Below are positions 4,464 to 55,574 of a DNA stretch of 64,000 bases, piece after piece; the stretch's first letter is position 1; every line of letters starts with the position of its first letter. The notes under the pieces are model-generated. The model was not told the origin of the DNA. It searched no databases and was given only the letters and a program-made list of their open reading frames with translations. Both the position numbers and the translations under genes were made by a program. Source of the stretch: Patescibacteria group bacterium (GTDB lineage Bacteria > Patescibacteriota > Microgenomatia > UBA1400 > CG1-02-47-37); the NCBI GenBank assembly GCA_034718535.1, contig JAYEMX010000064.1:4328-68327 (forward strand), read 5' to 3'.

Positions 4464-5201
4464 TCATGTCAATATGACAGGGTCAGACCCTGTCACTGCA
4501 ATGGTGTGTTCAAACATGCCGGCCATTTGACCGTCTTTAGTAACTATAGTCCAATTATCTTTTGGGTCGGTTTTGGTGTCGCTTGAACCTTTCATGTAGA
4601 TAACCTCAATGGCAATAGTCAGGCCCTTTTTTATAATAGGGGTGTTTTCGATTTTTCCCTCAAGAAAACAGGGAATCATGGGTGGTTCGTGAAGAGTCTT
4701 TCCAATACCGTGGCCGGTTAAATTTCTGGATACATTGTAGCCGTTAGATTCAATAGTGCCTTGAATCGCTTTTGAAATATGTCCAATATGATTATTTACT
4801 TTGGCTTGTTTAATAGCCAAATCCAGGGTTTTTTGGCCGATTTCCAGAAATTTTAATTTTTGAGGATAATCAGTCGGATTACCAACAATAAAACTAATAC
4901 ATGAATCTGTATTAAAACCCTTGTAAAGCATACCAATATCAATAGAAACAATATCGCCCAGTTTTAATTTTTTATCATCGGGAATACCGTGAACCAAGCC
5001 TTCATTTAAATTAATACAGGTGGCCCAAGAATAGCCGGGTACCATGGCGAAATTAGGTTTACCACCGGCTTTTTTAATTAAAGTTTGAGCCTTAGCTTCA
5101 ATTTGACTTAATTTAATTCCGGGTTTGGATATTTTTTTTAAGTCTTGTTTTATTTGGTGTAATTTAGCACCACCTTCGGCCATTAAATTGATTTTATTCA
5201 T
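4464..5201 (-). CDS. map: Methionine aminopeptidase type I
   Basis: MAP metal-binding motifs; the last 8 codons (VTGSDPVILT) are encoded by a REP-1 palindrome. Confidence 0.9.
   Translation of the reverse strand: MNKINLMAEGGAKLHQIKQDLKKISKPGIKLSQIEAKAQTLIKKAGGKPNFAMVPGYSWATCINLNEGLVHGIPDDKKLKLGDIVSIDIGMLYKGFNTDSCISFIVGNPTDYPQKLKFLEIGQKTLDLAIKQAKVNNHIGHISKAIQGTIESNGYNVSRNLTGHGIGKTLHEPPMIPCFLEGKIENTPIIKKGLTIAIEVIYMKGSSDTKTDPKDNWTIVTKDGQMAGMFEHTIAVTGSDPVILT
4475..4495. repeat. REP-1 palindrome tgacagggtcagaccctgtca, embedded in the map 3' coding end
   Basis: Perfect 10+1+10 palindrome identical to the copies flanking RAYT-1. Confidence 0.7.
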
Positions 5202-6338: not shown

Positions 6339-6402
6339 TTAAGGTTCGGAATAAAAGGTTACGAACTCGAACTTTTTAAAGTTCGTAACCCTACAGAACC
6401 TT
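6339..6402. repeat. PAL element, composite: outer arms aaggttc/gaacctt enclose a perfect inner palindrome ggttacgaact...agttcgtaacc
   Basis: Fills the secY-adk spacer; ends 6 nt before the adk ATG. Confidence 0.6.
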
Positions 6403-10928: not shown

Positions 10929-10976
10929 GTTAAGGTTCGGAACTAGAACTTCGGAAAGTTCACGAACCTTAGGTTA
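10929..10976. repeat. PAL element, canonical 48-mer gttaaggttcggaactagaacttcggaaagttcacgaaccttaggtta
   Basis: Identical to the copies at 12539 and 13606 (the 13606 copy lacks the 3' ggtta); ends 6 nt from the rplE ATG. Confidence 0.75.
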
Positions 10977-11890: not shown

Positions 11891-11929
11891 GAAGGTTACG
11901 AACTCGAACTTCTCAAAGTTCGTAACCTT
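11891..11929. repeat. PAL element variant B (aaggttacgaact...agttcgtaacctt, 13-bp stem); overlaps the last 11 codons and stop of rpmC
   Basis: Palindrome read directly; the rpmC stop TAA lies inside the gtaacc arm. Confidence 0.65.
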
Positions 11930-12538: not shown

Positions 12539-12586
12539 GTTAAGGTTCGGAACTAGAACTTCGGAAAGTTCACGAACCTTAGGTTA
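12539..12586. repeat. PAL element, canonical 48-mer; its 3' end supplies the last codons and TAA stop of rpsC and its 5' end lies 8 nt from the rplP ATG
   Basis: Identical 48-mer to the copy at 10929. Confidence 0.75.
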
Positions 12587-13605: not shown

Positions 13606-13648
13606 GTTAAGGTTCGGAACTAGAACTTCGGAAAGTTCACGAACCTTA
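13606..13648. repeat. PAL element, canonical copy, 3 nt from the rplV ATG
   Basis: Identical to the 10929 and 12539 copies over the first 43 nt; lacks the 3' ggtta. Confidence 0.75.
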
Positions 13649-13941: not shown

Positions 13942-13976
13942 ATATTTTGTTAATCACTCCGGAGTGATTAAAGTTT

Positions 13977-16553: not shown

Positions 16554-16862
16554 TTACATTCTAATTTCAATACCAACTCCGGCGGGCAGTTCCAGGTGCA
16601 TTAAACTATCTATAGTTTTGTCTGTAGAATCGATTATATCTACCAATCTTTTATGGGTAAGTAGTTGAAAGTGTTCTCTAGCATCTTTGTCCGCATGTGG
16701 GCTAGTGGTAACACAAACCAGTTTTCTTTTGGTTGGCAGAGGAATGGGTCCAATAACTTTAGCTCCGGTCGAAAGAGCGGTATCAAGTATTTTTTGGCAA
16801 CACTCATCTATGATCCTATGATCATAAGATTTTAATCTGATTCTGATTCTACCTTTTGGCAT
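16554..16862 (-). CDS. rpsJ: 30S ribosomal protein S10; start at the internal MPKGRIRIRL, not the extended ORF-track start
   Basis: S10 family similarity; upstream extension has no homology and covers leader repeats. Confidence 0.88.
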   Translation of the reverse strand: MPKGRIRIRLKSYDHRIIDECCQKILDTALSTGAKVIGPIPLPTKRKLVCVTTSPHADKDAREHFQLLTHKRLVDIIDSTDKTIDSLMHLELPAGVGIEIRM

Positions 16863-16940
16863 AATATAATAGTGACACGGTGACACATAGTGACACGGTT
16901 TTATCAAGATAAGAAGAGCCCGAAGGCTCGTCTTATTCAA
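16863..16940 (-). promoter_or_regulatory. Candidate S10-operon leader: 10-bp stem hairpin with UUCG tetraloop (aagacgagcc-uucg-ggcucuucuu), then three direct GUGUCAC repeats running up to the rpsJ AUG
   Basis: Read on the minus strand; in other bacteria this position holds the L4-responsive S10 leader. Confidence 0.35.
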
Positions 16941-16952
16941 ATTTTTAATTAT

Positions 16953-16996
16953 GTTAAGGTTCGGAACTTTTGAACACCTAAGAGTTCACGAACCTT
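16953..16996. repeat. PAL element variant, just 3' of the tuf stop
   Basis: gttaaggttcggaac...gttcacgaacctt arms. Confidence 0.65.
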
Positions 16997-17005
16997 GGTT
17001 TATAT

Positions 17006-18184
17006 TTATTTTAAGATCTTGGTAATAACACCGGCTCCGACAGTAAGTCCACCTTCACGAATAGCAAAGCGAAGACCTTCTTCTAAAGCAACTGGTTGAA
17101 TGAGTTTAGCGGTCATTTTAGCGCTGTCACCAGGCATAACCATTTCAACTCCCTTTGGTAAAATAACATCTCCGGTTACATCAGTAGTTCTGATATAAAA
17201 CTGAGGTTTGTATCCAGTAAAAAACGGAGTGTGGCGCCCACCTTCTTCTTTTGAAAGAATATAAATTTCCGCTTCAAACTCAGTAAAGGCTTTAACTGAA
17301 CCCGGTTTAGACAAAACCTGGCCCCTTTCAACGTCATCTTTTTCGACTCCGCGAAGAAGAATACCAACATTGTCACCAGCTTGACCATCTTCGAGTTGTT
17401 TTCTAAACATCTCGACTCCAGTAACAGTGGTTTTTTTAACCTTTTTTAAACCAATAATTTCGATTTCTTCACCGACTTTAATTTTACCCCTATCGATTCT
17501 ACCGGTAACGACTGTGCCTCTGCCTTTAATAGAAAAGACATCTTCAATCGCCATTAAAAAGGGTTTATCCAAATCTCTTTTTGGATCAGGAATATATTCA
17601 TCTAAAGCTTTCATGAGCTCTTCAATGGGTTTCTCAGCCTCGGCATCACCTTTCAAGGCTTTTAAGGCGCTACCTTTGATTATAGGAACATCTTTGCCTG
17701 GAAATTCGTATTTGGTTAAAAGTTCTCTGATTTCTTCTTCAACCAAATCAATCATTTCTTTGTCGTCTACCATGTCAACTTTGTTAAGGAAAACTACTAA
17801 AGCTGGAACATTAACTTGTTTGGCTAAAAGTAAATGTTCTCTGGTTTGAGGCATGGGGCCATCAGTAGCAGCGACGACTAAAATAGCACCGTCCATTTGA
17901 GCGGCACCGGTAATCATATTTTTAATGTAGTCTTTATGTCCCGGGCAATCGATATGAGCATAATGACGCTTATCTGTTTCATACTCTAAGTGAGAAATAG
18001 AAATGGTAATACCACGCTCTTTTTCTTCCGGAGAGTTATCAATCTCGTCAAATTTCATAGCATCTGCCATGTTCTTCTTTGCCAAATATTGAGTAATTGC
18101 GGCAGACAAAGTTGTCTTACCGTGATCGACATGACCAATGGTCCCGACGTTAAGATGGGGTTTGGTCCTTTTAAATGTTGCCAT
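17006..18184 (-). CDS. tuf: Elongation factor Tu
   Basis: [18 protein letters not shown] motifs; SD aaggagg upstream. Confidence 0.95.
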
Positions 18185-18247
18185 ACGGCCTCCTTTTTGT
18201 TTAATAGCTAGTTATTTATTCCTAGCAGTTTATATTTTAGCATAAAG

Positions 18248-18284
18248 TTAAGATTCCGAACACTGTTAGGTTGCGGAACCTTAT
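18248..18284. repeat. PAL element variant (gattccgaac...gttgcggaacc) in the fusA-tuf spacer
   Basis: Shares the ggttc(c)gaac core inverted arms. Confidence 0.55.
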
Positions 18285-18291
18285 GTTATTT

Positions 18292-20574: not shown

Positions 20575-20597
20575 CCTACAAGGAGAGTCCTTGTAGG
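20575..20597. repeat. REP-2 palindrome cctacaaggagagtccttgtagg, 10 nt 3' of the rpsG stop, with a partial duplicated arm (ttttgtaggttt)
   Basis: Same 23-mer as the REP-2 copy after the RAYT-2 stop (55548..55574) and related to the other RAYT-2 copies. Confidence 0.7.
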
Positions 20598-28620: not shown

Positions 28621-28625
28621 GACTT

Positions 28626-28659
28626 TAAAAAACAGAAAAAACGGGTGACTAACCCGTTT
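28626..28659 (-). terminator. Intrinsic-terminator-like hairpin (aaacgggt-uaguc-acccguuu) plus UUUUUCUGUUUUUU, ending 5 nt before the rpoB AUG
   Basis: Read on the minus strand; no SD before rpoB. Confidence 0.45.
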
Positions 28660-28817
28660 GTTTGGATTTAAAACTAAATTAAGATGTTAAGGTTGTGAAT
28701 ATAAATCACTTTTTTCCTTTATTGACTTTTTAAAAAGTATTTTTAAGAAAGGGACGAACAAGACCTAGCCTGATAACAGGCTATGATTAAAGTATATTAA
28801 CAGATAACCAGAGAAAG

Positions 28818-37287: not shown

Positions 37288-37322
37288 ATGACAGTGACAG
37301 GGTCAGACCCTGTCACTGTCAT
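37288..37322. repeat. REP-1 extended perfect palindrome (35 nt: atgacagtgacagggtc a gaccctgtcactgtcat) upstream of RAYT-1
   Basis: Perfect 17+1+17 inverted repeat. Confidence 0.75.
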
Positions 37323-37334
37323 GTTCCCTGTGAT

Positions 37335-38030
37335 ATGATTATTAGGATGCCATCAAAGAATAGGAATAAAGTTTATAAAGAAAACGGATATTATCATGTT
37401 TATAATCGTGGGGTTGATAAACGAAAAATTTTTATGGATGAACAAGATTATGCTGTTTTTTTGCATTTACTAAAGTATTATCTTTCTCCACCCAGCAAAG
37501 AAGACAAACATCCTTTGTCGGATACTTCTACAGCTGTGATTAGGCCTAGGCCAATTGAAAATTTACATCAAGAGGTTAATTTACTTGCTTATTGTTTGAT
37601 GCCAAACCATTTTCATTTATTGATAAAACAAAAAAGTATTGATGGTATGACAAAACTAATTCATAAACTACTAACTATTTATTCAATGTATTTTAATAGG
37701 CGTCATAAACGTATTGGCCATTTGTTTCAAGGTTGTTATAAGGCAGTTTTAGCTGATAATGACGAGCAGGTTTTGCATCTATCTCGATATATACACCTTA
37801 ATCCAGTTAAGCTGACAGGGTCTGACCCTGTCAGGTGGCCATACTCAAGTTTGGCTTATTATTTAGGGGAGAAAACTGCTAAGTGGGTGAAACCTAAAGA
37901 AATACTTGAGTGTTTTGAAAAGATAGAAAAGAATAAACTAACAAATAAAAACTACAATTCTTATAAAGAATTTGTTTTTGACGATAAAAAAGATTCTAAA
38001 GAAACTGTTGGCAGGTTTTCTATTGATTGA
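37335..38030 (+). mobile_element. RAYT-type HUH tyrosine transposase (IS200/IS605 TnpA-like, Y1). The likely true start is MPSKN at 37347, matching the N-terminus of RAYT-2.
   Basis: YHVYNRG...LMPNHFHLL (HUH)...SRYIHLNPVK (catalytic Tyr); flanked by REP-1 copies and carrying one internally. Confidence 0.8.
37812..37834. repeat. REP-1 palindrome ctgacagggtctgaccctgtcag inside the RAYT-1 CDS, encoding LTGSDPVR
   Basis: Perfect palindrome, in-frame. Confidence 0.7.
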
Positions 38031-38048
38031 CAGGGTCAGACCCTGTCA
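38028..38048. repeat. REP-1 palindrome; its first 3 nt are the RAYT-1 TGA stop
   Basis: tgacagggtcagaccctgtca. Confidence 0.75.
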
Positions 38049-54847: not shown

Positions 54848-54870
54848 CCTACAAGGAGAGTCCTTGAAGG
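54848..54870. repeat. REP-2 palindrome (cctacaaggagagtccttgaagg) upstream of RAYT-2
   Basis: Imperfect inverted arms around the agag centre. Confidence 0.65.
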
Positions 54871-55048
54871 CTTATACTTGAGGGTGTATACTGAATTTAA
54901 TGCCTTCAAAAAATGCTTTAAAAATCTATAAAGAAGATTCTTATTATCATATTTATAATCGAGGAGTGGCTAAGGCAAATATTTTTAAAGACAAAAAGGA
55001 TTATAAAGTTTTTCTTGATTATTTGAAAATATATTTATCTCCTGTCGA

Positions 55049-55071
55049 CCTACAAGGAGAGTCCTTGAAGG
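55049..55071. repeat. REP-2 copy inside the RAYT-2 CDS (encodes DLQGESLKV)
   Basis: cctacaaggagagtccttgaagg in-frame. Confidence 0.65.
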
Positions 55072-55352
55072 TTTCACCATCAAGAGAATTGAAAAATTAT
55101 TCAGATGAAATTATCTTGGTTGCTTATTGCTTAATGCCAAACCATTTTCACTTATTAATTCATCAAAAAAATAAGGATTCTATTAATTACTTTATGAGAT
55201 CTTTGGCTACAAAATATTCAAGATATTTTAATACTAGATATGATAGGGTTGGCCCATTATTTCAAGGTGTTTATAAAGCTGTTAAGGTTGACAATGAAGA
55301 TCAGTTGGTTTATTTGACTAAATATATTCATCGAAATCCTATTAATATCCTA

Positions 55353-55375
55353 CCTACGAGGAGAGTCCTTGTAGG
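55353..55375. repeat. REP-2 copy inside the RAYT-2 CDS (encodes LPTRRVLVGY), directly after the NPI(N) motif
   Basis: cctacgaggagagtccttgtagg in-frame. Confidence 0.65.
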
Positions 55376-55547
55376 TTATAAATACTCTAGTTATGGAAAT
55401 TACTTGGGATTATTTAAACAGGTCTGGGTAAAGCCAAATATGATTCTTGGATTGTTTTCTGCCTCTAATAAGTTATTTAGTTATAAAAGTTTTGTGGAAG
55501 AATTAGAAGAAGATTATAGTTCTATAAATAAAATTGTTCTTGATTAG

Positions 55548-55574
55548 CACCTACAAGGAGAGTCCTTGTAGGTG
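55548..55574. repeat. REP-2 perfect palindrome cacctacaaggagagtccttgtaggtg, 1 nt after the RAYT-2 TAG stop, followed by a partial arm duplication
   Basis: Read directly. Confidence 0.75.

Follow-up and report, generated by a model that had tools for sequence, protein, structure and literature searches.

We analyzed a 64-kb stretch of Patescibacteria DNA (hereafter, the window) for the leader of rpsJ, the first gene of its S10 operon, which lies in the spacer between rpsJ and the upstream tuf gene for elongation factor EF-Tu. This spacer, 143 nt long versus 59–79 nt in the closest relatives, reads as a stack of three stem-loop modules, each of which occurs alone in the short spacers of related Beckwithbacteria: a dispersed palindrome (module 1, family A), a hairpin with a UUCG loop (module 2, type H), and three GUGUCAC heptamers shortly before the start codon (module 3). 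All elements of the leader lie on the minus strand. They belong to no described RNA family, and their most likely function is an ordinary one: hairpins stacked between tuf and the S10 operon that serve as terminators or attenuators. We give about even credence to the fuller statement that the hairpins are leaky intrinsic terminators or attenuators that also stabilize the 3′ end of the tuf mRNA and set the read-through into an S10 operon without a promoter of its own. An earlier note on this DNA had singled out the same element as a leader directly 5′ of rpsJ, and that placement held.

For comparison, we collected 160 loci with relatives of S10 from species-representative genomes and metagenomes, which reduced to 128 distinct upstream regions. 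Almost all of these loci have tuf directly upstream of rpsJ, and most of the leaders contain one strong hairpin ending 10–25 nt before the rpsJ AUG, with sequence types that differ. In the window, the core of type H (AAGACGAGCC-UUCG-GGCUCUUCUU at 16934..16911) has standard pairs at 9 of 10 positions, a C·U mismatch at the remaining one, and C(UUCG)G as its loop. The earlier note had described a 10-bp UUCG hairpin; the hairpin is present, 3 nt away from where the note had placed it and with nine pairs plus the mismatch. Type H begins 70 nt past the tuf stop codon, is co-oriented with tuf, and has the features of a terminator, namely a G+C-rich stem-loop with an adjoining U-rich tract on the transcribed strand, 3′ of a stop codon. 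A consensus scan returned the terminator-like succession of GAGCCTTCGGGCTC and TTCTTATCTT.

Type H is present in 15 distinct Beckwithbacteria sequences, the window included, from species that share only ∼50–60% identity in L3 and L4. The GAGCC/GGCUC core is invariant among them, as is most of AUAAGA/UCUUAU; 89% of the cells in the alignment are paired, with compensatory changes at three of the outer pairs. The loop varies among the relatives (UUAG, UCAC, and CUCAA besides UUCG). A covariance model built from the alignment matched solely at the tuf–rpsJ spacer in 381 kb of sequence that included the whole window, and a regular-expression check agreed. With one copy in 64 kb, the hairpin shows none of the dispersal of repetitive extragenic palindromic (REP) elements. 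The distance from the type H core to the AUG is 12–24 nt in the relatives, usually 19 nt, and 53 nt in the window, where the heptamer array adds the extra length.

Module 3 consists of three exact GUGUCAC copies, as the earlier note had reported, at 16896-16890, 16886-16880, and 16878-16872, with start-to-start distances of 10 and 8 nt; a 13-nt unit, ACCGUGUCACUAU, is present twice, 18 nt apart. GUGUCAC is the sole 7-mer found three times within 30 nt in the 64 kb. In first-order Markov simulations, such a triple arose by chance in 19.5% of windows, or in 3% if the 7-mer had to contain at least three G or C. GTGTCAC occurs nine times in the window versus 1.65 expected (∼5-fold over), and only the three leader copies are clustered. 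The remaining sites were considered as further arrays and rejected, being scattered, mostly coding, and unclustered, and the array is not dispersed in the manner of REP elements. Six of the nine sites are followed by C (GTGTCACC; 7756, 16880, 31186, 34489, 43742, and 56561). The entire leader folds at z = −4.1 relative to shuffles. The array itself folds weakly in the window, at −3.8 to −5.5 kcal/mol with both strands equivalent, because every center is U·U. The strongest case against chance is comparative, since the same heptamer array sits equally far from the rpsJ ATG in other species.

Clusters of GUGNCAC occur in at least seven other leader variants (L005, L008, L009, L011, L094, L105, and L108), some of them shared identically by further loci (L005 with L092, L095, and L096; L008 with L099 and L101-L103; L011 with L107, L109, and L110). 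Within 705 kb of loci, such clusters stand solely at −34..−17 before rpsJ. The units repeat with a period of 8 nt, in two to at least five copies, and their center bases differ and are complementary (U/G or A/U), so that the copies pair. L005 reads GUGUCAC..GUGGCAC and L094 carries the wobble flip, GUGGCAC..GUGUCAC; the units of L011 are GUGACAC, GUGACAC, and GUGUCAC, and those of L105 are GUGGCAC, GUGACAC, and GUGUCAC. These arrays fold at −15 to −21 kcal/mol and are followed by U5 or UUUCUUUAUUU (U-run tails AUUUUUAUG or UUUCUUUAUUUAUG). In six of the eight array-bearing leaders, the rpsJ-sense strand folds 7–12 kcal/mol better than the antisense strand (∼4 in L108) because of G·U pairs; this points to selection on a sense-strand RNA hairpin in those relatives. 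The earlier note had suggested that the repeats could form a platform for binding protein or RNA; in the relatives, they do not behave as single-stranded direct repeats but pair as both arms of a stable hairpin on the sense strand, with a U-run behind it. The three identical copies of the window may nonetheless bind a protein. Both the hairpin and the repeats are conserved in close relatives, the point on which the note had staked its proposal. In L009, the array (GTGTCACT, at least five copies) is duplicated around a run of N at ∼2270-2500 and the assembly breaks there, which is consistent with variable copy number.

A tree of L3, L4, and S10 orders these hairpin types. Type H is carried by the basal Beckwithbacteria lineage L007 and by most of the window’s clade; the sister clade carries mostly arrays, with type H kept in L010; and the outgroup Microgenomates carry a boxA-like motif. 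Type H is the ancestral element on this tree. The window’s nearest relatives are L002, with a CACTCCGGAGTG-type element, and L003, with family A instead. Family A, type H, and the array stand together in the window leader only. Because of this distribution, we regard the spacer as a “hairpin slot” with an exchangeable occupant, three of which are stacked in the window.

The hairpin of module 1, absent from the earlier note, belongs to family A (AAGGUUCGUGAACUUUCCGAAGUUCUAGUUCCGAACCUUAAC), which has seven copies in 64 kb, read in the minus-strand sense (∼6355-6390, 10932-10970, 11892-11929, 12542-12580, 13609-13647, 16956-16996, and ∼18235-18275) and thus the many dispersed intergenic copies of a REP-like element. 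L003/L087 have no spacer hairpin other than this element, and in L090 it stands ahead of the hairpin. Elsewhere in the window, family A lies between S10 and spc cistrons, typically ending 3–10 nt before the next ATG, with a similar copy before adk, as a REP-like element or one resembling a miniature inverted-repeat transposable element within operons that need read-through. A small palindrome, CACTCC(N)GGAGTG, found in the window at 393-429 and 13955-13966 (near 400 and before rpsS), forms the tuf–rpsJ hairpin of L002/L084. Palindrome families appear to have been exchanged at the tuf–rpsJ spacer.

We then considered where transcription and translation of rpsJ could begin. In the fusA–tuf spacers of 16 relatives, tuf has a conserved extended −10-like box, GnTAAAAT, ∼45–55 nt upstream and a strong AAGGAGG Shine–Dalgarno (SD) sequence. 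Neither an SD sequence nor a −10 box was found for rpsJ, unlike tuf, and a promoter scan of the minus strand of the spacer returned nothing sigma-70-like from the tuf stop to rpsJ. Hand-picked promoter candidates (TTGATA..., TTAACA-16-TAAGAC, and CATAAT) were rejected, as their spacing was wrong or their hexamers poor and they were not conserved. The heptamer was likewise rejected as an SD-like partner of the 16S 3′ tail, there being no GGUGA or GGAGG on the sense strand. SD machinery is present in the organism, since tuf, rplO, rplX, rplQ, and dnaK in the window have AGGAG-type SD sequences. An N-terminal extension of S10 to the in-frame TTG at 16940, with the frame open through the array, was rejected because all 160 homologues begin MPKG/MxK and the upstream part is not conserved in frame. 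Hairpins just before start codons are common in this genome, family A elements standing directly before rplV, rplP, and rplE, and a hairpin followed by the AUG seems to be a general habit of it. A canonical terminator (AAACGGGUUAGUCACCCGUUUUUUCUGUUUUUU) at ∼28621-28665 on the minus strand ends ∼8 nt before the rpoB ATG (28620), leaving no room for a promoter.

Under the reading that we favor, transcription would start at the conserved tuf promoter or further upstream and run into the GAGCC-UUCG-GGCUC hairpin, which, with its U-rich 3′ side, would act as a leaky terminator or attenuator and also protect the 3′ end of the tuf mRNA. We infer the leakiness because no promoter-like site lies between the hairpin and rpsJ. 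Only some polymerases would then reach the S10 operon, and EF-Tu would be kept above the ribosomal proteins. The GUGUCAC triple would be the window’s copy of a lineage-specific tandem quasi-palindrome, the GUGNCAC array with its 8- to 10-nt period. In the sister lineages, this array is predicted to fold into the spacer hairpin with its U-run and to fill the same slot as an alternative to type H. Three identical, weakly pairing copies suggest that the window array is a second hairpin that is auxiliary or in decay, and replication slippage probably shaped it. As it covers −34..−10 of a start without an SD sequence, any structure or factor there would also gate the access of the 30S subunit.

Several observations weigh against leaky terminators as the full account. 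A consensus-level promoter match lies within tuf at 17130..17103; if it served the S10 operon, the whole spacer would be a 5′ untranslated region. The U-tract behind type H is interrupted (UUCUUAUCUU). The conservation of the type H core exceeds what a generic terminator would need, given an L3 identity of ∼50–60%, and the hairpin–AUG distance in the relatives is nearly fixed at ∼19 nt; both features hint that the hairpin has a sequence-specific partner or takes part in translation. As for the array, the window copies are identical and have almost no structure, so that the hairpin rationale of the relatives fails to explain their upkeep here. The nearest relatives, L002 and L003, lack the array altogether, and it could therefore be neutral.

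Neutrality is plausible for this genome alone, and as a general account of the window array we consider it fairly unlikely. The repeat would be a microsatellite-like expansion made by slippage, or else a piece of the clade-X hairpin, either left over or acquired laterally, sitting in a hot spot of palindrome insertion and having no function of its own. Its identical copies, the repeated 13-nt unit, the weak fold, the varying copy number with the assembly break in L009, and its absence from the nearest relatives all fit this account, as do the different dispersed palindromes hosted by the spacer (family A in L003 and the window, the CACTCCGGAGTG-type in L002) and the presence of two palindrome-flanked Y1_Tnp genes in the window. 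Against it, at least seven other leader variants, from both sides of the Beckwithbacteria tree, carry the same heptamer at this −34..−10 position, and such positional conservation is not expected of a neutral repeat; nor is the array dispersed, with no other cluster in the 64 kb or in the 705 kb of loci. At the level of DNA, the array could be an operator for a WhiA-type regulator, its plus strand (GTGACAC three times) offering three GACAC(R) cores. GACAC is the WhiA core and rpsJ is a target in Streptomyces by chromatin immunoprecipitation (Bush et al. 2013, PMC3781837). Firmicutes, Mollicutes, Actinobacteria, and Thermotogae share a conserved GAYACRCY before the rpsJ operon (Fisunov et al. 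2024, PMC11701221), which is the site of an ATP-sensing repressor in M. gallisepticum (PMC11701221); WhiA sites upstream of this operon, through which it is repressed or activated, are thus known in many phyla (PMC3781837, PMC11701221). On the antisense strand, each window copy fits GAYACR (GACACG, GACACA, and GACACG), the chance of GACAC or GTGTC in a random heptamer is ∼0.6% by our own calculation, and every relative’s array keeps at least one GACAC or GTGTC. Nevertheless, we judge such an operator very unlikely. The extended core is matched at six of eight positions, position 7 being G or T rather than C, and GUGGCAC copies, with a central G, lack GACAC on either strand. The sense-strand asymmetry based on G·U pairs points to selection at the RNA level, and the promoter scan found no promoter near the array. 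GACAC/GTGTC is absent from leaders with the conserved hairpin alone and shows no enrichment among the other rpsJ leaders of Microgenomates (10 non-array leaders versus 7.7 expected). WhiA and its Pfam domains are missing from a fully annotated Saccharibacteria genome, and whiA was not seen on inspection of the open reading frame (ORF) list of the 64-kb window. Homologue searches from T. maritima WhiA (via PDB 3HYI) returned Thermotogae and Firmicutes only. The earlier note had compared the position with the L4-responsive S10 leader of E. coli, which combines L4 binding, NusA-dependent attenuation, and translational repression. The resemblance holds in form, a hairpin with a U-rich tail shortly before the rpsJ start at the same genomic position and in an operon that includes rplD, the gene for L4, and recalls the logic of the S10 attenuator. 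Homology is extremely unlikely. Rfam gave no real match, whether in the window at the gathering score, at 16700-17200 with E ≤ 10 (spurious hits only), or in 20 related loci; the spacer contains stacked hairpins that are simple and unrelated, each of which some relative does without; and the E. coli type is, to our knowledge, restricted to gamma-proteobacteria.

The remaining alternative is an RNA operator for NusB–S10 of the boxA type, by which S10 would regulate its own synthesis; the last GUG(G/U)CAC-U unit would derive from such a site and the extra copies would be partial sites. We regard this as unlikely, and give the same low weight to its corollary, that NusB–S10 bound at −34..−10 would block 30S entry at the SD-less start. 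What recommends it is a motif in the wider group: G[CTA][ATC]C[ATC]T[TC]N[AG][AT] occurs within −25..−1 of 46 of the 128 distinct rpsJ leaders versus 2.4 expected, mostly at −10 or −13, and the stricter GCAC form has 40 matches versus ∼0.4 expected. Its commonest form is GCACUUUAAUAUG, its carriers are L012, L015, L016, L038-L080, and L111-L158 (locus position ∼2480-2500), and 32 of the 36 leaders with the strict motif have no SD sequence. The search consensus, GYTCTTTAANA, is gamma-proteobacterial (PMC5725501); GTTCTTTAAAA (L015, L122) matches it perfectly and GCTCTTTTATA (L064) at 10 of 11 positions, although it may not be the consensus of this lineage. In gamma-proteobacteria, Nus-factor repression has precedent, with boxA-dependent translational repression of suhB documented and boxA predicted before rpsJ in three genera (Baniulyte et al. 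2017, PMC5725501). NusB, moreover, is present and essential in a genome of the candidate phyla radiation (CPR), that of Southlakia epibionticum (PMC10633639 supplement); this gene table apart, the literature on WhiA or NusB in CPR yielded nothing useful. A boxA-like motif at the rpsJ start suggests, on sequence grounds, that S10 may be autoregulated through NusB–S10 in CPR bacteria. Descent of the array from this motif is plausible, since relatives with an array have G(G/U)CACUUU at its end and the window’s UCAC at −13..−10 occupies the GCAC position of many leaders. The window sequence (GUGUCACUAUUAUAUU) does not match the gamma-proteobacterial boxA consensus, however, and its best alignment, to the Microgenomates variant GCACUUUAAUA, agrees at 8 of 11 positions, mostly A/U. 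Leaders with the conserved hairpin alone have no boxA-like motif. The heptamers of the relatives lie within a stable hairpin, unlike boxA, which is bound as an extended single strand. No nusB was recognized on inspection of the ORF list of the 64-kb window, and neither the window nor any fetched locus contained rRNA. We consider it distinctly unlikely that the GUG(N)CAC units, derived from a boxA-like operator abutting the rpsJ start across Microgenomates and multiplied to an array in some Beckwithbacteria, are still functional and let NusB–S10 shut off translation of the S10 operon.

The gene order around the leader runs in one direction on the minus strand (rpoB-rpoC-rpsL-rpsG-fusA-tuf-rpsJ-rplC-rplD... 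in the ORF list), in a window of 35% G+C, and Pfam supports the identities of EF-Tu, S10, and L3. The closest S10 matches are metagenome-assembled genomes labeled Candidatus Beckwithbacteria (Microgenomates, CPR). An identical spacer is present in an independent assembly (Logan SRR26901924), in which the contigs of this organism are 4–6 kb long. Over the whole 64 kb, Rfam at the gathering score returned no family, and so no tRNA, rRNA, or known ribosomal-protein leader; this blank stands alongside the S10, spc, alpha, str, and rpoBC clusters, all of which are in the window. Two Y1_Tnp ORFs resembling IS200 or REP-associated tyrosine transposases (RAYTs) lie at 37335-38030 (+) and 54900-55547 (+), each flanked by its own palindrome family, GACAGGGTCAGACCCTGTC and CCTACAAGGAGAGTCCTTGTAGG. 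They also contain copies of these palindromes, and the Pfam match begins only at position 39 of the profile, as though something interrupted the coding sequence. A link between the array and the RAYT-flanking palindrome GACAGTGACAGGGTC... was rejected, because the two have just AGTGACA in common and no array lies near those copies.

Table 1. Positions of the leader modules, the adjoining genes, and related features in the window
Feature	Position	Strand	Remarks
tuf (EF-Tu), gene upstream of rpsJ	17006..18184	−	ORF list; Pfam GTP_EFTU, D2, D3
fusA–tuf spacer	18185-18291 (window); also L001-L011, L083-L088		tuf −10 box and SD sequence
tuf stop codon	17008-17006	−	
Module 1, family A palindrome AAGGUUCGUGAAC...GUUCCGAACCUU, ∼40 nt	16956..16996	−	ΔG about −15 kcal/mol
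Module 2, type H hairpin AUAAGACGAGCC-UUCG-GGCUCUUCUUAU	16909..16936	−	12 pairs; U-rich 3′ side, A-rich 5′ side; ΔG −13.9 kcal/mol
Module 3, three exact GUGUCAC units	16872..16896	−	−34..−10 from rpsJ AUG; Tandem Repeats Finder; plus strand, GTGACAC three times
A/U-only 9-nt spacer UAUUAUAUU, last heptamer to AUG	16863..16871	−	No SD sequence
rpsJ ATG	16862-16860	−	N terminus MPKGRIRI kept in 160 related loci, all starting at the equivalent ATG
rpsJ (S10/NusE), first gene of the S10 operon	16554..16862	−	Pfam Ribosomal_S10, residues 7-100
Palindromic repeats of the first Y1_Tnp family	4476-4494, 37296-37314, 37814-37832, 38029-38047		
Palindromic repeats of the second Y1_Tnp family	20575-20597, 54848-54870, 55049-55071, 55353-55375, 55550-55572		

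The locus bears on how CPR bacteria balance EF-Tu, ribosomal proteins, and Nus factors, and we know of no ribosomal-protein leader described for them. It offers three testable cis-elements: the invariant, locus-specific hairpin of the tuf–rpsJ spacer; the quasi-palindrome array that replaces it in sister lineages; and, in the wider Microgenomates, the boxA-like motif at an rpsJ start without an SD sequence. If the hairpins are merely leaky terminators, this is ordinary operon architecture. Two observations leave room for a possible protein-mediated circuit, namely the identical heptamers on a ribosome-binding region without an SD sequence and the boxA-like motif of the wider group; a protein that read the heptamers or the motif would make this a new autoregulatory circuit of the S10 operon. 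Were the array an operator for NusB–S10, the largest ribosomal-protein operon of a CPR lineage would be controlled mainly by Nus-factor autoregulation, which would replace feedback of the L4 type.

Among known systems, the leader resembles intrinsic terminators and intercistronic attenuators (other bacteria have such a terminator between tufA and the S10 operon) in its G+C-rich stem-loop, U-rich on the 3′ side and A-rich on the 5′ side, and in its place, which directly follows the stop codon of a gene with very high expression and precedes an operon required at a lower stoichiometry. Unlike generic terminators, the window hairpin has a core that is invariant across species and unique to the locus, is stacked with two more modules, and belongs to a type that ends ∼19 nt (53 in the window) before a start codon with neither promoter nor SD sequence between. 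The dispersal of family A, the palindrome-flanked Y1_Tnp genes, and the swapping of hairpins between close relatives recall REP elements and bacterial interspersed mosaic elements with RAYT (Y1) transposases, whereas the UUCG hairpin and the GUGUCAC array each have one copy and are specific to this locus. With the E. coli S10 leader, the region shares an attenuator-type hairpin and U-tract some tens of nucleotides before the S10 start in an operon encoding L4; it differs in having no sequence or structure similarity to that leader, no multihelix HD/HE architecture, and no covariance-model match. The predicted S10 leader of Firmicutes and the Peptostreptococcaceae rpsJ motif (PMC7247131, PMC11109978) are likewise candidate structured rpsJ leaders from comparative genomics, but of another lineage and another architecture. 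Like a WhiA operator, the array has a GACAC core (three times here) directly before rpsJ, in an operon that includes adk as WhiA-controlled rpsJ operons do; unlike one, it carries the core in antisense and at six of eight positions, without an adjacent promoter or auxiliary motif and without conservation in other Microgenomates leaders. The boxA or NusB–NusE sites (PMC5725501) are, like the motif of the other Microgenomates, short, linear, U-rich, and within 50 nt upstream of rpsJ, where the motif abuts the AUG. The window, by comparison, holds just UCAC-UAUUAUA, a poor match to the gamma-proteobacterial consensus, and its repeats are quasi-palindromes that form hairpins in the relatives.

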